DNA of 46,142 nt, taken from the sequence record MZ997841.1; one strand, given 5' to 3'. Within the stretch, counting starts at the first letter, position 1, and each line of letters begins with the position of its first letter. The DNA is from Escherichia phage ULINTec7. Shown here in pieces: positions 3,612-46,142 of the stretch. Position numbers and translations under genes: made by a program. The notes under the pieces were generated by a model. The model was not told the DNA's origin. It made no database searches and saw nothing but the letters and a program-made list of their open reading frames with translations.

Positions 3612-6239
3612 ATGCAAGACCTACACGCTATTCAACTTCAACTTGAAGAAGAAATGTTTAACGGCGGTATCCGTCGCTTTGAAGCGGACCAACAACGCCA
3701 GATTGCATCCGGTAATGAATCAGACACGGCATGGAATCGCCGCTTATTGTCCGAGTTAATCGCGCCAATGGCTGAAGGTATTCAGGCATACAAGGAAGAG
3801 TATGAAGGTAAAAGAGGCCGTGCACCACGTGCATTAGCTTTCATTAACTGCGTAGGGAATGAAGTAGCAGCATATATCACCATGAAAATCGTTATGGATA
3901 TGCTGAATACAGACGTTACCTTACAAGCCATCGCTATGAATGTAGCCGACCGAATCGAGGACCAAGTACGTTTTAGCAAGCTGGAAGGTCACGCAGCTAA
4001 GTACTTTGAGAAAGTGAAGAAGTCGCTTAAGGCTAGCAAGACTAAATCTTATCGTCATGCGCACAACGTAGCGGTAGTAGCTGAGAAGTCTGTTGCTGAC
4101 CGTGACGCGGATTTCTCCCGTTGGGAGGCATGGCCTAAAGACACCTTGTTGCAAATAGGCATGACCTTGCTAGAAATCTTGGAGAATAGCGTATTCTTCA
4201 ATGGTCAACCTGTCTTCCTTCGTACCTTGCGCACTAACGGCGGAAAGCATGGTGTTTACTATTTACAGACCAGTGAACATGTTGGCGAGTGGATAACTGC
4301 ATTTAAGGAACATGTAGCGCAGCTCAGCCCTGCCTATGCACCTTGCGTTATACCTCCCCGCCCTTGGGTATCACCTTTTAACGGCGGTTTCCACACTGAG
4401 AAAGTAGCAAGCCGTATTCGTCTGGTAAAAGGAAACCGCGAACACGTCCGCAAGCTGACCAAAAAGCAAATGCCAGCGGTTTACAAGGCTGTTAACGCTT
4501 TGCAGGCGACTAAGTGGCAGGTTAATAAAGAAGTTTTGCAGGTAGTAGAGGACGTTATCCGTCTCGACCTTGGTTATGGTGTACCTTCCTTTAAACCACT
4601 CATCGACCGCGAAAACAAACCAGCTAATCCGGTGCCGCTAGAATTTCAGCACCTGCGAGGCCGTGAACTGAAAGAGATGCTAACGCCGGAACAGTGGCAA
4701 TCCTTCATTAACTGGAAAGGTGAATGCACCAAGCTGTACACCGCAGAAACTAAGCGTGGCAGCAAGTCGGCGGCTACGGTCCGCATGGTTGGTCAGGCCC
4801 GTAAATATAGCCAGTTCGACGCAATCTACTTCGTGTATGCACTGGACAGCCGCAGCCGTGTATATGCGCAATCTAGCACGCTCTCACCGCAATCAAACGA
4901 CTTAGGCAAGGCACTCCTACGGTTTACCGAAGGGCAGCGCCTTGATAGCTCTGAGGCGCTTAAATGGTTTTTGGTGAACGGGGCTAATAACTGGGGTTGG
5001 GATAAGAAAACTTTCGACGTGCGCACCGCTAACGTGTTAGATGGTGAATTCCAAGACATGTGCCGCGACATTGCAGCGGATCCTCTGACCTTCACTCAAT
5101 GGGTAAATGCCGACTCCCCTTACGGCTTCCTTGCTTGGTGCTTTGAATATGCGCGTTATCTGGATGCACTGGATGAAGGCACGCAAGACCAATTCATGAC
5201 GCACCTCCCAGTCCATCAAGATGGTAGTTGTTCTGGTATCCAGCACTACAGTGCTATGCTACGCGATGCAGTAGGTGCGAAAGCGGTAAACCTTAAGCCC
5301 TCTGACTCCCCTCAAGATATTTATGGTGCCGTTGCGCAGGTAGTAATTCAGAAGAATTATGCATACATGAATGCAGAGGATGCGGAAACCTTCACTTCTG
5401 GCAGCGTGACTTTAACAGGTGCAGAACTTCGTAGCATGGCTAGTGCGTGGGATATGATAGGAATCACTCGCGGCCTGACCAAAAAGCCTGTAATGACACT
5501 ACCTTATGGCAGCACACGTCTAACCTGCCGTGAATCAGTGATTGATTATATCGTTGATTTGGAAGAAAAAGAGGCCCAACGGGCTATTGCGGAAGGGCGT
5601 ACCGCCAATCCTGTACATCCTTTTGATAATGACCGCAAAGACAGCCTGACACCTAGCGCAGCTTATAACTATATGACAGCTTTAATCTGGCCTTCTATTT
5701 CGGAAGTGGTTAAAGCTCCTATAGTGGCAATGAAAATGATTCGTCAGCTTGCACGTTTCGCAGCTAAAAGAAACGAAGGCTTAGAATATCCCTTACCAAC
5801 TGGCTTCATCTTGCAACAAAAGATAATGGCTACCGATATGCTCCGCGTATCCACTTGCTTGATGGGTGAAATCAAGATGAGTCTCCAGATTGAAACAGAT
5901 GTAGTTGATGAAACGGCAATGATGGGTGCGGCTGCTCCTAACTTCGTCCATGGTCACGATGCTAGCCACCTGATTCTGACTGTATGTGACCTAGTGGATA
6001 AAGGTATTACATCCATTGCAGTCATCCATGATTCTTTCGGTACTCATGCAGGACGTACCGCAGACCTGCGGGATAGCTTAAGGGAAGAAATGGTTAAGAT
6101 GTATCAAAACCATAATGCCCTGCAAAACCTGCTAGATGTGCACGAAGAGCGTTGGTTAGTAGACACCGGAATCCAAGTACCAGAGCAAGGAGAGTTTGAC
6201 CTTAACGAAATCTTAGTTTCAGACTATTGTTTCGCATAA
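3612..6239 (+). CDS. Single-subunit DNA-dependent RNA polymerase (T7/SP6 type)
   Basis: 875 aa with [16 protein letters not shown] and [13 protein letters not shown] motifs matching the T7 RNAP catalytic region. Confidence 0.97.
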
Positions 6240-11016: not shown

Positions 11017-11455
11017 CTACATCCTCTACTCTGATGGTCGAGTTCTTAACGAGAAAACCGGACAATATCTAAGAGGTTACTTAGATAAAGATGGGTATCA
11101 TATTATGAATATTAAAGGGAAACACCTTAAAGTTCATCGATTAGTTGCTATCCATTTCATACCTAACCCTAATAATTTACCTGAAGTTAACCATAAAGAT
11201 CATGACCGTCTAAACAATAATGATTGGAATCTAGAGTGGTGTACTCATCAAGATAACAACAAGCATAGCTTACATTTAGTAATAGCTTCTTGTGCTAAAC
11301 GCTATGACTTTATATCACCACAAGGTGTCCATGTAGAAGTCTATAACTTACGTGAGTTTTGTAGGAATAACAACCTACAGCAATCTCATATGGTTAAGGT
11401 GGCTAAAGGTAAAGTAAGACATCATAAAGGTTGGACTAATTATGCTAGATGTTGA
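10976..11455 (+). CDS. HNH homing endonuclease (free-standing)
   Basis: 159 aa with HRLVAIHFIPNP...VNHKDHDRLNNNDWNLEW; AGGAGGGAGG SD; paralog of the intron ORF at 7992. Confidence 0.85.
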   Translation: MSSKQIKCTRIFTNYILYSDGRVLNEKTGQYLRGYLDKDGYHIMNIKGKHLKVHRLVAIHFIPNPNNLPEVNHKDHDRLNNNDWNLEWCTHQDNNKHSLHLVIASCAKRYDFISPQGVHVEVYNLREFCRNNNLQQSHMVKVAKGKVRHHKGWTNYARC

Positions 11456-13988
11456 TTGGAAAGAATTTGGAAAGAATCGCATACTTGTCATGGATGCTGA
11501 AAGTAAAGGTTTACTTGATGCTATCCGATATGGACACCGTGAAGATGTGCATATCATTTGCTGTATGGATTTGCTTACTACCGAGGAGTTTCTCTTCTTT
11601 GACCCGTATGAGATGCGTGACCCTGAAGCAAGAGAACGCCTGAAGGAATGGGAAGGTCATCAAGATGGAACCTTGGTTGACGGTGTTAACTTCCTGAAGC
11701 ACTGTGAGGCTATTGTGTCGCAGAACTTCCTAGGGTATGACGGTCTTCTCTTTGAGAAAGCATTCCCTGATATTTGGAAAGGCTTTAACTATACCGAGAA
11801 GCGCGGTAAGGGCAGACTCCGTGCTGACCTGTGTCCTATCCGTGTTGTAGATACGCTGGTGATGAGTCGTCTGCTAAACCCAGATAGACGCCTTCCTCCG
11901 CAAGCATATGCCAAAGGCATGGGTAACGTCGCCCCTCACTCAATTGAGGCGCACGGCATCCGTATAGGCCGCTATAAACCAGAGAATGAGGACTGGTCTA
12001 AACTAACTGACCACATGGTTCACCGTGTACGTGAAGACGTGGCAATTGGTCGTGACCTTTTCCTATGGCTTTACAACGGAGAGTGGACGGAGCACAAACG
12101 CCGTGGCGTGAATAAACGTACTGGCCTAGGTATTGAGACAGCCTTCCACATGGAGTCCATTGTGGCGCTGGAGATGAGCCGTCAGGCCGAGCGCGGGTTC
12201 CGTCTGGACATCGACAAGGCTTTGTCCCGATGCGAAGAATTGGACGCTAAGATTGACGAGACAGTCGCAGCGTTCCGCCCTCACATGCCTATGCGTATCA
12301 AGTCTAAACCTTTTAAACCGGAAGAAAAGAATGAAGTATGCCAACGCGCAAATGAGTATGGAGCTAGCAACAATATACCTACTGTCCTTGACCCCTCACA
12401 CTTTCTTCATGCCGAGAGACGAGGAGATCGCAAGACAGTATGGAGTGTCACTACTAAGTCTGGTGATTGGTCGGCTAGTGTCAAGAAAGACTTTCCTCAC
12501 CTTAGAGGAAACCGTAATGACACGCCAAGCATCAAGTGGATTGGCGCTTACTCGCCTGTTACTTTCGAAGAGATTCCCTTGGGTAACAGGGATACAGTTA
12601 AGCAAGTGCTCTATGATTATGGATGGAAAGGTGTTGAATTTAACGATACCGAGCAAGCGCATCTCGATGAGCACGGAGTGTTACCCAAACCTTGGAGTGG
12701 TAAGATAAATGAAAAGTCCCTTACTTTATGGCAAGAAAGAGCCGCACGTGAAGGTAAAACAGTCCCTGATTGGTGCTTGGGTATCGCTGCATGGTACATA
12801 CTCGTATCCCGTCGTGGTCAGATACTCAACCGTGGTGACGTTGAAGCCTTCAACGAGAAGGGAACGTGGCCCTCGCAGGCTGGTGTACGAAAGTGTCGCG
12901 GCCTTGTACCTGTAGCATTCAACAAGGAGCTAGGAATCAATGCGCAGCAATACTACGAGAGGTACGGATATTGGCCTACGTCTGACAAAGATGACGGAGA
13001 GTGGCGTGTTCCAGCTGTTGCTATTAGTATTGGCACTTCTACGTTCCGTATGCGTCATCGTAACGTGGTTAATATTCCTGCCCGTGGCTTGTATCCTTTA
13101 CGTGATTTATTCATAGCAGGGAAAGGCAAGCTAATCCTTGGTTGTGACGGTGCAGGTCTTGAACTGCGTGTCCTGTCTCACTTCATGAATGACCCTGAGT
13201 ACCAAGAGATTGTACTGCACGGTGATATTCATACGCATAACCAGATGAAGGCTGGTCTTCCTAAGCGTGATATGGCGAAGACGTTTATATACGCCTTCCT
13301 CTATGGCTCTGGTATAGCCAACCTTGCAGCAGTATGTGGTGTTACTGAGGAGGAAATGAAGGAAGTTGTGGCAAGATTCGAGATTGAACTGCCGTCTCTT
13401 GCACGTCTTCGTGAGAATGTTATCGCACAAGGTAACAAGTTTGGCTACCTGCAAGCACCTGATGGGCATTGGGGTCGCATCCGCATGTCTGGTGGTGAAC
13501 TTAAAGAGCACACTATGCTTAACGTATTACTCCAGATGACTGGCTCTTTGTGTATGAAATATGCATTAGTAAAGGCATTTGCAGTAATGCGCAAGGAAGG
13601 TGTAGCCTTGGATGCTATGGGAAGCCCTTGTGGTGTGGCTAACGTCCACGATGAAATCCAGATGGAAGTTCCTGAAGAAGAGGTCTTGTACCTTAACTAT
13701 GACCTACCTTTCACCTTAGAAGGGTTTGAAACAGAGAAGGCTGCTGTGAAAGCAGTGTTCGATGCAGAAGAGAAACGTGTTCATGTGGATTCTGAAGGAC
13801 GTATGTGGTCTGCTGCAAACCTCGTTAGTGTTGATGCTGATGCTGGTGTACTTCATTGTCAGCGCCGTTATCACCGTGCTGGGCATATCATTGCCGACGC
13901 CATGACTTGGGCTGGTCAGTATCTGAAGATGCGTTGCCCGATGGCAGGAGAATATAAGATTGGCACAAGTTGGAAGGAAACACACTGA
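11442..13988 (+). CDS. DNA polymerase (family A, T7 gp5-like)
   Basis: N-terminal exo motif ILVMDAESKG resembles T7 MIVSDIEAN; GCDGAGLELRVLSHF, GDIHTHNQ...AKTFIYAFLYG and HDEIQ polymerase motifs. Start is uncertain between 11442 and 11490. Confidence 0.93.
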   Translation: MLDVDWKEFGKNRILVMDAESKGLLDAIRYGHREDVHIICCMDLLTTEEFLFFDPYEMRDPEARERLKEWEGHQDGTLVDGVNFLKHCEAIVSQNFLGYDGLLFEKAFPDIWKGFNYTEKRGKGRLRADLCPIRVVDTLVMSRLLNPDRRLPPQAYAKGMGNVAPHSIEAHGIRIGRYKPENEDWSKLTDHMVHRVREDVAIGRDLFLWLYNGEWTEHKRRGVNKRTGLGIETAFHMESIVALEMSRQAERGFRLDIDKALSRCEELDAKIDETVAAFRPHMPMRIKSKPFKPEEKNEVCQRANEYGASNNIPTVLDPSHFLHAERRGDRKTVWSVTTKSGDWSASVKKDFPHLRGNRNDTPSIKWIGAYSPVTFEEIPLGNRDTVKQVLYDYGWKGVEFNDTEQAHLDEHGVLPKPWSGKINEKSLTLWQERAAREGKTVPDWCLGIAAWYILVSRRGQILNRGDVEAFNEKGTWPSQAGVRKCRGLVPVAFNKELGINAQQYYERYGYWPTSDKDDGEWRVPAVAISIGTSTFRMRHRNVVNIPARGLYPLRDLFIAGKGKLILGCDGAGLELRVLSHFMNDPEYQEIVLHGDIHTHNQMKAGLPKRDMAKTFIYAFLYGSGIANLAAVCGVTEEEMKEVVARFEIELPSLARLRENVIAQGNKFGYLQAPDGHWGRIRMSGGELKEHTMLNVLLQMTGSLCMKYALVKAFAVMRKEGVALDAMGSPCGVANVHDEIQMEVPEEEVLYLNYDLPFTLEGFETEKAAVKAVFDAEEKRVHVDSEGRMWSAANLVSVDADAGVLHCQRRYHRAGHIIADAMTWAGQYLKMRCPMAGEYKIGTSWKETH

Positions 13989-14606: not shown

Positions 14607-14984
14607 ATGTCTATGGTAACTACTCTGGTATTTGTAGCTCAATACTTTCGTGGTCTGGCTAATAAGTTCAAGTCCAAGGCTATCAAAGCTATTGAGTCTC
14701 GCATCGAGGTAGTACAGGCAGAGCAAGTTAAAGTTGAAGAACATCGTAGTTCTCAAATGATTGACTGCCATAACCGCTACTATGCATCTCGTGATGACCT
14801 TAATGCACGCCAAGTCAAAGAGGTTGAAGATATGATGGCACGTCACCAGCAAGAGCGTGACAGCATGAAAGCTGAATTTGAAGAGAACAAGGCATCCATT
14901 GCTCTGGTACACCAATCTGCATCTGACAGTCTGAAGAAAGAGATTGTTATGCTTGAAATCGAACTGGACAACCTGACCAAATAA
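14607..14984 (+). CDS. Hypothetical protein (125 aa)
   Basis: ORF downstream of the promoter with AGGAG SD. Confidence 0.55.
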   Translation: MSMVTTLVFVAQYFRGLANKFKSKAIKAIESRIEVVQAEQVKVEEHRSSQMIDCHNRYYASRDDLNARQVKEVEDMMARHQQERDSMKAEFEENKASIALVHQSASDSLKKEIVMLEIELDNLTK

Positions 14985-15290: not shown

Positions 15291-15312
15291 TTACTGGACA
15301 CTATAGAACAAT
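15291..15312 (+). promoter_or_regulatory. Phage-RNAP promoter
   Basis: TTACTGGACACTATAGAACAAT. Confidence 0.7.
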
Positions 15313-15459
15313 AGGTCGGCTTAGTTCGGCCTATGATTGTAAAGTGTTGTTGATGTTGAACCATTGTGCATCTTGCACAACCCGATACCGTATCGGGCTT
15401 TCTAGTGAGTACATGCTTGTGCTCAGTACAAAGCTAACTGACAATAGGAGACTAAATAA

Positions 15460-16266
15460 ATGGCACGTGGTGATTTTGATTTTGGTGCTTCCGTATCTAA
15501 AGCTGAAGGTAAAGTCTTTAAGAACCCAGAAGTAGGTGATCATGAAGCAGTAATCTCTGGCATCATTCATGTTGGTTCCTTCCAAGACATCTTTAAGAAA
15601 GGTAATACCACTGAAGTTAAGAAGCCAGCAAACTTTGTTCTAGTTAAGATTGTCCTGATGGGCGACGATGACAAGAACGAAGATGATTCTCGCATGGAAC
15701 AATGGATGGCTGTTCCTCTGAAGTCTGGTGATAAGGCAACACTGACTAAGTTCCTAAATGCAGTTGACCCAAAAGAATTGCTTGGTGGCTTCGATGATTT
15801 TATCGGGGAATGCCTGACTGCAACTATGGTTGGCTCTGGTGACAAGAATGACGATGGTTCATTCAAGTATGTTAACTGGAAAGGATTCGGTGGTATGCCT
15901 GACAAGCTTAAGAAACTTGTCATTGCTCAGGTTGAAGAAGAGGGTCTGTCTATGACAGGTCACATCACCTTCGACAAGCTGACCAAAGAAATCCTTGATG
16001 ACATTCCTGCTAACTTGGTACGCCAATACTTCCTGAATGAAACGCCTCGTGGTAAGAACCTGTCTGTTGCTGGCTCTCATGTAGAAGCAATCATTAAAGC
16101 TGCTCGTGAAGAAGACCCAGAGTGGAAGAAGGCCAAGAAGAAAGATGATGAGGATGCCACTCCAGCTAATCGTAAATCTCTGGACACTGGTGAGTCTGTT
16201 CCGCAGGAAGTACCTGAAGCAGAAGATACGCCTGCACCGGAGATGGATGAGGACGCAGAATATTAA
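15460..16266 (+). CDS. Putative ssDNA-binding protein (gp2.5-like by architecture)
   Basis: 268 aa with an acidic C-terminal tail ending in an aromatic residue (PEMDEDAEY), as in the T7 gp2.5 tail. The assignment is an inference from architecture only. Confidence 0.4.
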   Translation: MARGDFDFGASVSKAEGKVFKNPEVGDHEAVISGIIHVGSFQDIFKKGNTTEVKKPANFVLVKIVLMGDDDKNEDDSRMEQWMAVPLKSGDKATLTKFLNAVDPKELLGGFDDFIGECLTATMVGSGDKNDDGSFKYVNWKGFGGMPDKLKKLVIAQVEEEGLSMTGHITFDKLTKEILDDIPANLVRQYFLNETPRGKNLSVAGSHVEAIIKAAREEDPEWKKAKKKDDEDATPANRKSLDTGESVPQEVPEAEDTPAPEMDEDAEY

Positions 16267-16275
16267 GGAGAACTG

Positions 16276-16494
16276 ATGAAAGTACAAATCGTAACTCTGC
16301 ATTGCAAGAAAGGAATCACCACGCTTGGCGGCAATACTTTCCACTCCTTCTCCGAGGGGGAGGTTTATTCTGACCTGCACTACATCTGGCGCGATGGACA
16401 GCACGTGGTGAACTACAGCGACCCAGCTACGGGTAAACGCCACGGCGTATCGCTTCCGGCGCATGACATTGCTCAGGTGAACACAGTTTTATAA
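16276..16494 (+). CDS. Hypothetical protein (72 aa)
   Basis: ORF with AGGAG SD. Confidence 0.45.
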   Translation: MKVQIVTLHCKKGITTLGGNTFHSFSEGEVYSDLHYIWRDGQHVVNYSDPATGKRHGVSLPAHDIAQVNTVL

Positions 16495-16495
16495 A

Positions 16496-16511
16496 GTCTC
16501 ACATGTGAGAC
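16496..16511. promoter_or_regulatory. Conserved palindrome GTCTCACATGTGAGAC, copy 5
   Basis: Lies 15 nt upstream of the promoter at 16526. Confidence 0.6.
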
Positions 16512-16525
16512 AAATCGGTGTCCGG

Positions 16526-16549
16526 TATTTACTGGACACTATAGAAGAG
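16526..16549 (+). promoter_or_regulatory. Phage-RNAP promoter
   Basis: TATTTACTGGACACTATAGAAGAG. Confidence 0.8.
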
Positions 16550-16598
16550 AAGAATTTTAATCGGCGATAATGCCACAACTAACAAAGGAGAATTTAAT

Positions 16599-16976
16599 AT
16601 GTTCAAGATTGAAACTATCGTAAACCGTGTTGTTAAAGGTGCTGCTCTGGTATCCGTTGAGTCTTTCATTATCGTCGATGAAGCTGATCAACTGGTAGCT
16701 GGTACTAAGGCTTACGATACCCGTGAAGAAGCTCAGGCTAAGATTGACAGCATGGGTAACTTCGCTGCTGGTCTGGAGTTCGCTCGTGCTTGCTTCCCTG
16801 AGCAGGCTGACAAAGCTCAGATTGGTAAGGCTAATATCGTAGCTGAATATCTGGATTGGATTGCTGCTGGTAAGCCGGTGAAAGAAGTTAAGTCTGCTGA
16901 AGAAGCTGAAGCTCAGGCAGTAGAAGAAGTAGCTGCACCGGTAGATGCTCCGGTAAGCGAAGAAGAAGAGTTTTAA
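16599..16976 (+). CDS. Hypothetical acidic protein (125 aa) with C-terminal SEEEEF tail
   Basis: Bracketed by a consensus promoter upstream and a hairpin plus T-run downstream; AAGGAG SD. Confidence 0.65.
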   Translation: MFKIETIVNRVVKGAALVSVESFIIVDEADQLVAGTKAYDTREEAQAKIDSMGNFAAGLEFARACFPEQADKAQIGKANIVAEYLDWIAAGKPVKEVKSAEEAEAQAVEEVAAPVDAPVSEEEEF

Positions 16977-16982
16977 TTGATG

Positions 16983-17014
16983 CCCTGTCTGCCTTAGTGT
17001 AGGCAGGGTCTTTT
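16983..17014 (+). terminator. Putative intrinsic terminator
   Basis: Stem CTGCCT/AGGCAG with a 6-nt loop, followed by GGTCTTTTG. Confidence 0.45.
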
Positions 17015-17040
17015 GCGTAATAGTTATTGGAGAATGAATT

Positions 17041-17346
17041 ATGCCGACTATTAAATCTCGTTTAGTAGCAGACTATGTGTATGGTCGTGACTTAAAGTTA
17101 ATGCAAGATTACTTTAAAGTAATCATCCTGCTGGATGGAGAAGTGTTTCACACTAAAACATTCACCCTTCCTGAATTGTTTGATTTAGGTTATTGGGTTT
17201 ATACATATCAGGCCATAGCAGACAAGGTGCTACTCAGTGTATTAGAGGAGTGGCCTACATGCGACCAAACTTCGACTTCGGAGCTACAGTATCGGAAGAC
17301 AATAATCTCATCTTGTGGCCAACTGAAGGTAATAGAATCGCTTTAA
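17041..17346 (+). CDS. Hypothetical protein (101 aa)
   Basis: ORF with GGAG SD that overlaps the exonuclease start by about 88 nt. Confidence 0.3.
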   Translation: MPTIKSRLVADYVYGRDLKLMQDYFKVIILLDGEVFHTKTFTLPELFDLGYWVYTYQAIADKVLLSVLEEWPTCDQTSTSELQYRKTIISSCGQLKVIESL

Positions 17347-18287
17347 TAGATGCTGATATGCTACCCTACATCGTAGCTTATACAATCAGTGACATGACTT
17401 ATGTGCGAGCCACAACTCGTGTTAAGTCAGGACAAGTCCCATCAATCAAAGATACACCTGAGTGTAAGCAAGCGTGTGACCGTGTGAACTCCTTGCTCAA
17501 CTCTTGGGTGTATGCAGCAGAGTGTGATGCAGCTAAGTTATTCATGACGAAATCAGAAGCTAACTTCCGTGTTCGCCTAGCCTTCACCAAGCCTTATAAG
17601 GGTCAACGTAAGACCGAGAAGCCTCCGTTCTTCTATGAATTGCGAGAGCATCTCTTAGAGGTTCATGGTGCAATCTTGGCAGATGGAGAAGAGGCTGATG
17701 ACCTCATGAGCATTGCACAATGGGACAGCCACCGCCGCTTCCAGCAAGATACAGGTAACGAGTTCCCTATCGGTAGTCCAGAGCATAAAGCATTCTCTGA
17801 TACTTGCATCGTTTCCTTAGATAAGGATTTGATGATTGTTCCCGGTTGGCATCTTCAGCCGGGTCAAGAGAAGAAATGGGTAGAGCCTATGGGTTGGCTT
17901 GAGTTACGCCGTAAGGCTAATGGTCAGGTTAAAGACCTTAAAGGTGCTGGCCTCATGTTTCATTATGCACAGATGATTATCGGTGATGATATTGATAACT
18001 ATGCTGGCATACCTGGACGTGGTGCTAAATACGCCTATGATCTTCTCAAAGATTGTAAGACAGAGAAAGAGTTGTACATGGCAGTGCTTGGTGCTTACAA
18101 GGCTAAGTTCGGACATGGACAAGTTAAGATTAAGAATTACCGAGGTGGTTATCGTATCGGCAAGGCCTTTGACCTGATGCTCGAATGTGGTCGCCTAGCT
18201 CACATGGCAAGATTCAAAGGTGATATATGGCGAGCCGATAAGAACCCAATCTTGTGGGGAGATGATGCGGAATGGTTAGCAAATTAA
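17259..18287 (+). CDS. 5'-3' exonuclease (T7 gp6 / FEN-like)
   Basis: IALIDADMLPYIVAY, IVSLDKDLMIVPG and GDDIDNYAGIPGRG resemble T7 gp6 ILVMDGDWLV, IISCDKDFKTIP and GDITDGYSGIAGWG. Start at 17259 has AGAGGAG SD; an alternative ATG lies at 17193. Confidence 0.85.
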   Translation: MRPNFDFGATVSEDNNLILWPTEGNRIALIDADMLPYIVAYTISDMTYVRATTRVKSGQVPSIKDTPECKQACDRVNSLLNSWVYAAECDAAKLFMTKSEANFRVRLAFTKPYKGQRKTEKPPFFYELREHLLEVHGAILADGEEADDLMSIAQWDSHRRFQQDTGNEFPIGSPEHKAFSDTCIVSLDKDLMIVPGWHLQPGQEKKWVEPMGWLELRRKANGQVKDLKGAGLMFHYAQMIIGDDIDNYAGIPGRGAKYAYDLLKDCKTEKELYMAVLGAYKAKFGHGQVKIKNYRGGYRIGKAFDLMLECGRLAHMARFKGDIWRADKNPILWGDDAEWLAN

Positions 18288-18682
18288 AATCATCGGAGGT
18301 AGCAGCTTATAAGAGGGAATTGCTAGAGAAGCAAGGATGGAAGTGCCCACTATGTGGCGGCAGTCTCAAGGCTGTTACTCCTATAAACCGTGTACTTGAC
18401 CATGACCATGAGACAGGATTCTGCCGTGCTGTTGTATGCCGAGGCTGCAATGGTGCAGAAGGAAAGATTAAGGGTGTTATCTCTGGTTACGGTAAGGCTG
18501 GTAACAACCGTTACTTCCAGCTTCAATGGTTAGAGCGGCTATATGAATACTGGAAGTTACATAGTACGCCTCAGACAGATAAGTTATATCACAAACACCA
18601 AACGGAGGCAGAGAAGCGCGAGGCTAAGAACCGTAAGGCACGCCTTGCTTATGCAAGAAAGAAGGAGGTTAAAGTTGGGTAA
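18272..18682 (+). CDS. Endonuclease VII-type Holliday junction resolvase
   Basis: CPLCGG...LDHDHETG...CRGCNGAEGKIKG resembles T4 endo VII (CLICQ...LDHDHEL...CNLCNAAEGQMKH). Confidence 0.8.
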   Translation: MVSKLKSSEVAAYKRELLEKQGWKCPLCGGSLKAVTPINRVLDHDHETGFCRAVVCRGCNGAEGKIKGVISGYGKAGNNRYFQLQWLERLYEYWKLHSTPQTDKLYHKHQTEAEKREAKNRKARLAYARKKEVKVG

Positions 18683-46030: not shown

Positions 46031-46142
46031 AAGACCAAATAAGGGACGAGAAGATACGGAGGTCGCTCACAAAGTAACCAAAGTCAAAATTTTGATACAG
46101 GCGTGTGTGAGGTGTCTCGCCCTCGCCCTCGCCGGGTTGTCC

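Follow-up and report, generated by a model that had tools for sequence, protein, structure and literature searches.

A short F-D-F-G peptide common to the N-termini of an SSB-like protein and the exonuclease of K1-5-like phages: a candidate docking motif

The window analysed here, 46,142 nucleotides of Escherichia phage ULINTec7 (MZ997841.1), encodes two proteins of the replication module that begin with nearly the same short peptide. One is a 268-aa protein with an acidic tail, the other a 5′-3′ exonuclease. A first-pass annotation of the window noted the resemblance and listed a common interaction or localisation tag, a recombination footprint and chance as possible origins. The question raised by the locus is which of these applies, and what a peptide placed at the ends of two different replication proteins might do.

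The locus and the two N-termini

A megablast search with positions 15300-18300 returned 95 phage records, each with at least 80% query coverage. The top matches are the Vectrevirus genomes K1-5, K1E and VEc3 (Autographiviridae, Molineuxvirinae), which are 93-99% identical, and SP6-like relatives are also among the matches, at lower identity. By sequence similarity the window is that of a Vectrevirus of the K1-5/K1E type. The local gene order is DNA polymerase, small open reading frames, gene 16, gene 17, gene 18, gene 19, exonuclease, endonuclease VII and metallophosphoesterase. The open reading frame at 15460-16266 is K1-5 gene 16, annotated as "hypothetical protein", and the exonuclease at 17259-18287 corresponds exactly to K1-5 gene 20, an annotated 1029-nt CDS. 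The features of the locus are as follows.

11442-13988: DNA polymerase gene
15298-15308, plus strand: SP6-type phage promoter core (ACACTATAGAA); the gene-16 ATG follows about 150 nt downstream
15460-16266, plus strand: gene 16, 268-aa SSB-like protein with an N-terminal tail, a Gly-containing linker, a predicted OB-like core and an acidic C-terminal tail
15460-15513, plus strand: predicted flexible N-terminal tail of the SSB-like protein, residues 1-18 (pLDDT below 50)
15475-15495, plus strand: motif copy 1, F6-D-F-G-A-S-V12, in gene 16
16141-16263, plus strand: C-terminal acidic tail of the SSB-like protein, predicted to be disordered; last residues ...EMDEDAEY
16599-16976, plus strand: gp18-like 125-aa protein with an acidic tail ending EEEEF; phrog_4429, function not assigned; located between the two motif-bearing genes
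17041-17346, plus strand: gene 19, 101 aa, phrog_10319 "DNA repair protein"; out of frame with the exonuclease gene, whose first 88 nt it covers with its 3′ end
17259-18287, plus strand: 5′-3′ exonuclease (FEN family), 342 aa; phrog_107 exonuclease, E 1e-73
17259-17333, plus strand: N-terminal extension of the exonuclease, residues 1-25, before the first predicted FEN-core strand (E27-31)
17271-17291, plus strand: motif copy 2, F5-D-F-G-A-T-V11, in the exonuclease

SP6-type promoter cores (ACACTATAGAA, at most one mismatch) occur 12 times in the window, against 1.2 expected. A second core lies at 16536-16546 (plus strand), closely upstream of gene 18, and 10 other sites are found elsewhere. 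Upstream of gene 16, a 125-aa coiled-coil-like open reading frame at 14607-14984 (plus strand) has an ortholog that is called "polysaccharide chain length determinant protein" in the RefSeq records of K1-5 and VEc3, an odd label within a replication module.

Both start codons are sound. A stop codon directly precedes the gene-16 ATG, and AGGAG lies 9 nt upstream of it. For the exonuclease, the start at 17259, from which the first-pass annotation had read the peptide, is backed by AGAGGAG 8 nt upstream, by the RefSeq records of K1-5 and VEc3, which annotate the exonuclease CDS (1029 nt) from the same start, and by relatives in which the frame opens just 0 to 3 codons ahead of the Met or Val initiator and is unconserved further upstream.

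The gene-16 protein begins MARGDFDFGASVS (the translation of 15460-16266 opens with MARGDFDFGASVSKAEG) and the exonuclease begins MRPNFDFGATVS (the translation from the ATG at 17259 opens with MRPNFDFGATVSEDNN); the tail peptides are ARGDFDFGASVSKAEG and MRPNFDFGATVSEDNN, respectively. In the core, FDFGA[ST]VS, 7 of 8 positions are identical. The match had been put at 8 of 10 positions. The similarity is real, but the best ungapped 10-mer gives 7/10, and 8/10 is reached only with the shared R and a one-residue indel, a minor discrepancy. When the N-termini of 63 plus-strand open reading frames of the window were compared, the runner-up pair had only 5/10, and 7/10 was attained by shuffled N-termini in 3 of 300 trials. 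A six-frame search of the window with [FYW]D[FYW]G[AST][ST]V finds two sites only, those of gene 16 and the exonuclease. A minus-strand NFDFGYFVS near 46088, at the right end of the window, lies outside any plausible gene and was taken as chance.

The extent of the resemblance was assayed with profiles of the two families. In an hhalign comparison the N-terminal 33 columns align (P 5.9e-5), and with 91 x 159 sequences 28 columns align (P 1.5e-4). With the first 8 residues removed, no similarity is left between the gene-16 and exonuclease families (P 0.42). An extended N-terminal homology, suggested by an apparent FKNPEVG / LWPTEG resemblance, was rejected as not significant alone, and only the short motif is common to the two. 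The earlier statement that the two proteins are otherwise unrelated is thus upheld, with the similarity confined to the N-terminus and predicted folds of different kinds, OB-like and FEN. All frames of 110 loci were scanned for a third motif-bearing protein, and only sporadic, internal or truncated matches were found.

Predicted structures of the two proteins and their neighbors

Gene 16 belongs to PHROG 862 (phrog_862), a family without an assigned function. Pfam has no family at E <= 1 for the gene-16 protein or for 13 diverse relatives, and a PDB sequence search with the protein gave no match. In hhalign, the 29-sequence gene-16 profile scores a probability of 0.1% (E 0.62) against T7 gp2.5. 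A sequence relationship to gp2.5 was therefore rejected, and likewise no Pfam, PDB-sequence or NCBIfam link stands above threshold. A sub-threshold NCBIfam match, NF046043 (18.9 bits, cut-off 75), covers residues 20-107 (window 15460-16263, plus strand). NF046043 is the "phage replication initiation protein, NGO0469 family", possibly a distant gene-16 relative under another label.

The AlphaFold model of the gene-16 protein (mean pLDDT 78) has a beta-rich core at residues ~20-227, with a pLDDT of about 90. Residues 1-18, 228-258 and 266-268 have values below 50, and the block 251-260 averages 46. The modeled core is OB-like, an OB-type beta-barrel whose fold neighbors are PrgE, RPA, POT1 and LEF-3, and the nearest solved structure is PrgE (PDB 8s4s). 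The terminal E/D-[YF] of the acidic tail is retained in all relatives aligned.

An exhaustive profile search of 1.84 billion proteins recovered only 94 representatives (50% identity) of the gene-16 family. Among the 83 that are full length, 16 have tips of the E. coli SSB type (DDDIPF, DDEVPF, DDEIPF etc.), 23 terminate in acidic-x-F/Y, 57 carry an aromatic among the final three residues, and 48 have GG within the first 40 residues. The FD[FY]G tail is found in only 18 of the 83, and many distant members begin MSLNxN...GGG, not FDFG. The layout in common is an N-terminal peptide, a glycine linker, an OB-like core and an acidic tail, and what stands at the N-terminus seems to be specific to the lineage and swappable. 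Since SSB-type tips are present on distant members, the SSB reading of gene 16 gains support. It had rested on the acidic tail and the gene neighborhood; with the OB-like core and the DDDIPF-type tips the assignment is now stronger, although a sequence link to gp2.5 or to a Pfam SSB family does not accompany it. From the model, gene 16 is likely an OB-like protein that would bind single-stranded DNA.

The AF2 model of the exonuclease has a mean pLDDT of 93.8. It falls to 57 over residues 1-10 and to 78 over residues 11-20; the core, in which the first strand begins at residue 27, exceeds 95. Foldseek matches the model to E. coli ExoIX, T4 RNase H, T5 FEN and mycobacterial FEN, with E values from 1e-7 to 1e-5. 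The Pfam 5_3_exonuc match is sub-threshold (24 vs 40 bits). Ten acidic columns are invariant (D31, D33, D90, E145, D147, D148, D188, D190, D243 and D246), and as modeled the 342-aa protein is a FEN-fold exonuclease with conserved carboxylate clusters. Alignments with more distant homologs start only at residue ~26.

The gp18-like protein has orthologs (47 distinct sequences), with an acidic tail and a terminal F/Y, between the SSB-like and exonuclease genes in every related locus. The module thereby holds two proteins with gp2.5-style acidic aromatic tails, the SSB-like and the gp18-like. The overlap with gene 19 means that the motif codons are dual-coding in the Vectrevirus exonuclease; the motif is still present in distant relatives that do not have the overlapping gene 19.

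Conservation, distribution and co-variation of the motif

Alignment of 29 gene-16 homologs with 33-86% identity shows M1, F6, G9 and A10 to be invariant. In the 13 most diverse sequences (28-60% identity) there are only 10 invariant columns, and these include M1, F6 and G9. Among 41 exonuclease homologs (45-84% identity), F5 and G8 are invariant, as are W20 and G24 further along the extension. The motif persists in homologs down to 33-36% identity, and the consensus for both families is F-[DN]-[FY]-G-[AG]-[ED]-V-[AST]. F-x-[aromatic]-G is found within the first 12 residues in 45/45 full-length gene-16 clusters (in one cluster at residue 18), and the motif is found in 113/117 exonuclease clusters, with three of the four exceptions being truncated gene calls. 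The relatives thus conserve the motif at both N-termini, and chance, one of the origins first listed, is excluded by this conservation and by the place of F and G among the few invariant columns. In some SSB-like lineages Ala stands for the second aromatic (FDAG, FNAG) while the partner exonuclease still has F/Y; the constraint on the two copies is thus not identical.

Important is the place of this conservation in the models. The motif region has a pLDDT below 50 in the SSB-like protein and a mean of 57 in the exonuclease, and the flanking positions are variable while F and G are invariant. A disordered stretch that is strongly conserved commonly marks a linear motif. Conserved residues in segments that monomer models leave unplaced are typical of peptides that bind in trans, and, to the extent that the models are correct, the motif is a short linear motif in its traits: it is disordered, more conserved than its flanks, and carried by otherwise unrelated proteins.

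Both genes and the motif co-occur in 30 and 42 viral contigs and in 30 metagenome contigs, and also in the genomes of phages with hosts in Escherichia, Salmonella, Klebsiella, Proteus, Erwinia, Vibrio, Pseudomonas, Marinomonas and Aeromonas. In all four exonuclease-anchored contigs examined, the SSB-like gene is found just upstream; three of these genes begin with the motif and the fourth is cut by the contig end. In other groups the motif is missing from both proteins. It is absent from T7 gp6 and gp2.5. It is absent from both proteins of the LUZ24-like phage PaP4, where the SSB is gp2.5-like and the exonuclease begins directly at the first core strand. In a Zobellviridae Vibrio phage (1.253.O) the SSB-like protein (MGINASN...EDIPW) does not have the motif, and the exonuclease is tail-less and begins at the core strand. 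In phiKMV, ORF21 begins differently and has no acidic tail; the exonuclease is likewise without the motif. Across the phage groups compared, the motif is present or absent jointly in the two protein sequences. The possibility that exonucleases copy the SSB tail as a general rule was rejected on account of the Zobellviridae phage and phiKMV; the feature is clade-specific. Located between the genes for DNA polymerase and exonuclease, phiKMV ORF21 (349 aa, hypothetical; 5043-6092 of the locus examined) is a distant homolog of gene 16 at the same genome position, with a weak match of 16 bits to the HMM of the diverse family.

The two copies also change together. SSB-like and exonuclease copies are FDFGA and FDFGA in phages of the SP6, K1-5 and ECBP5 types; in Vibrio phi-A318, Pseudomonas Alpheus and Marinomonas CB5A they are FDYGG with FDYGG or FNYGG, and in metagenomic lineages FDYGV with FDYGV, FNYGT with FNYGC, and FDFGE with FDMGE. 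The residue after Gly is thus paired within genomes as A/A, G/G, V/V and E/E. For 28 representatives and 10-residue windows, the within-genome mean identity is 5.57 vs 4.50 in permuted pairings (p = 5e-5, a value that holds across sets of 19 to 28 representatives), and for 9 deep clades it is 5.67 vs 4.29 (p = 6e-4), in comparisons where permutation of the pairings removes phylogenetic effects only in part (lineage rate differences, for example, remain). By this measure the two motif copies co-vary within genomes, and the shared derived states do not come from slow evolution alone.

At the nucleotide level a corresponding resemblance is not seen. Among 279 positions at which the copies agree in amino acid, the codon is the same in 116, vs 123 expected from codon usage; in the window, F, D, F and G each have different codons in gene 16 and in the exonuclease, and the 30-nt windows of the two copies are 61% identical. 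With no excess of shared codons, selection acts on the peptide and not on the DNA, and the codon counts exclude the recombination footprint proposed earlier. What remains of the first list is a common interaction tag, which flexible tails, co-variation and joint presence or absence support indirectly.

Possible role of the shared peptide

The reading we prefer, with a probability of roughly 0.4, is that the shared peptide is a docking motif for one pocket, which the phage would encode, which would co-evolve with the peptide and which is most likely part of the SSB-like core. The motif drifts by lineage across very different hosts, and a phage-encoded receptor is thus more likely than a conserved one of the host. 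F-[DN]-[FY]-G-[AG]-[ED]-V would then be a short linear docking motif on a flexible tail, both copies of which would be read by one pocket, for which the OB-like core of the SSB-like protein is the most probable site. On single-stranded DNA, each SSB-like monomer would dock with its tail on the next one and give a cooperative, beads-on-a-string coating. The exonuclease, with its own copy on a tail ahead of the FEN core, could dock on SSB-coated DNA or on the end of a filament, and such docking would couple 5′-3′ resection or primer removal to the coating of the exposed strand.

Because of precedents in PrgE, herpes simplex virus ICP8 and T4 gp32, the SSB-like core is, by analogy, the leading candidate for the receptor. 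PrgE, from the Enterococcus plasmid pCF10, strings along single-stranded DNA with its N-terminal tail docked on the neighboring monomer, and loses oligomerisation when 12 residues are removed (PMC11137577). It is the closest fold to gene 16, whose tail is conserved and predicted to be flexible. However, PrgE has 15% sequence identity and, at 144 aa, half the size, comes from a plasmid and not from a phage, and has neither the FDFG motif nor an acidic Y/F-ended tail, and no nuclease is known to carry its tail. In HSV-1 ICP8, an F-N/D-F motif in the disordered C-terminal tail docks in a hydrophobic pocket of the next monomer; this FNF docking drives cooperative filament formation, and ICP8 partners the 5′-3′ exonuclease UL12 (PMC12409425). 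As in gene 16, the motif is aromatic-Asn/Asp-aromatic and lies in a terminal tail that is disordered, here on a viral ssDNA-binding/annealing protein; but fold and size are unrelated, the motif is C-terminal, and no copy is reported on the exonuclease, so that the likeness is an analogy only. In T4 gp32, an N-terminal peptide gives the SSB its cooperativity and competes with the nuclease for the SSB core; once it is removed, gp32 binds RNase H, a nuclease of the FEN family, with high affinity (PMC3012046). In gp32 the peptide is basic (LAST motif) and the one described here is acidic-aromatic, T4 RNase H binds through its own C-terminal domain and not through a look-alike peptide, and a fold relation of the two SSBs is not demonstrated.

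Points against docking on the SSB core are the unequal constraint on the second aromatic of the two copies and the exonuclease of related phages (PaP4, Vibrio 1.253.O), which manages without an N-terminal tail. A more specific form of the docking reading, which we hold to be slightly less probable than docking as such, is peptide mimicry in SP6/K1-5-like and Colwellvirinae-like podophages: the phrog_862 SSBs would polymerise through the F-D-F-G tail, the FEN exonuclease would have acquired a copy for the same pocket, and the two would make up a two-component resection-and-coating (exo/SSB) machine with a contact that co-evolves by lineage.

The main rival, which we consider somewhat less probable, places the pocket on a third phage protein, a hub for both tails such as the DNA polymerase, the primase-helicase or the gp18-like protein, and makes the motif a means of recruitment to the replisome. 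Conservation, disorder, co-variation and co-occurrence fit a hub equally well, the acidic peptide could equally match a basic patch on the DNA polymerase or helicase-primase, and the gp18-like gene constantly adjoins both genes in every locus. Known systems work in this way: in T7 the different proteins gp2.5 and gp4 have similar tails and both bind gp5, and the PIP box recruits clamp partners. However, the SSB-like protein already has an acidic Y/F-ended C-terminal tail, which in T7 is the contact element for polymerase and helicase, and self-association by a tail has documented cases in the nearest fold and among further viral SSBs (PMC11137577, PMC12409425).

Improbable is a set of independent, parallel roles, in which each tail folds on its own core or active site or touches DNA, and in which the similarity is convergent and no partner is common to the two. 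The intermediate confidence of exonuclease residues 11-20 and the invariance of W20 and G24 are consistent with this, and in FEN-family nucleases N-terminal residues can order upon substrate binding. However, co-variation within genomes and coupled presence or absence would be unexpected, the families share nothing after removal of the first 8 residues, the motif is not confidently packed in either monomer model, and both peptides are acidic (FDFGAEVSED...), so that a DNA contact is unlikely.

Very improbable is a regulatory tag (a protease degron or localisation signal) for a host or phage factor with no replisome contact. N-terminal peptides are frequent recognition sites for proteases and targeting, and the motif is on two proteins only; yet to our knowledge it matches no known N-terminal degron pattern, and its lineage-specific drift, from Escherichia to Vibrio, Pseudomonas and Marinomonas hosts, is a poor fit to a conserved host receptor. 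Although the motif is short, with 7-8 residues in common, its conservation across two unrelated folds and over 150 sequence clusters, together with the shuffles and codon counts given above, leaves next to no probability for chance or for a recent exchange, by recombination or gene conversion, between the genes at their 5′ ends.

The docking reading can also be set beside other replication modules. T7 gp2.5 and gp6 occupy the same genome position in an Autographiviridae replication module, and are likewise an SSB/annealing protein and a FEN-type 5′-3′ exonuclease; gp2.5 and the gene-16 protein both have an acidic C-terminal tail with an aromatic last residue. The E. coli SSB tip (DDDIPF) and PIP-box hub motifs follow the same logic, a conserved peptide on a flexible tail that is read by a pocket of a partner. 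Unlike these, the motif described here is N-terminal and is present on an SSB-like protein and on an enzyme of the client type, and its receptor is only a candidate.

In the literature, no paper was found on SP6/K1-5 gene 16 or on an N-terminal F-D-F-G motif; a 2026 preprint on a phage SSB-like trigger of DRT10 was set aside as not relevant, the phage protein being unrelated. Gene 16 is a "hypothetical protein" in nearly all of ~215 phage records, and one record mislabels such genes as structural proteins. With this label, and with the PHROG function missing, SP6-like phages are left without an annotated SSB. The principle that short tail peptides organise replication proteins is known, while the N-terminal motif, its sharing between an SSB-like protein and a nuclease, and the SSB-like family appear to be undescribed. 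The assignment offered is concrete: a probable OB-like SSB with a two-tail layout and a proposed 7-residue contact in common with the exonuclease.

If docking on the SSB-like core is correct, the two proteins would present a clear case of a client enzyme that copies the cooperativity peptide of the SSB itself. The N-terminal motif would then join a small set of replisome docking peptides, which includes the SSB C-terminal tip, the PIP box and the gp2.5/gp4 tails, and would provide a handle for dissecting or engineering replication and recombination in phages of the K1-5/SP6 type, which are used in therapy and biotechnology. The natural lineage variants GA, GG, GV, GT/GC and GE are ready material for specificity swaps.
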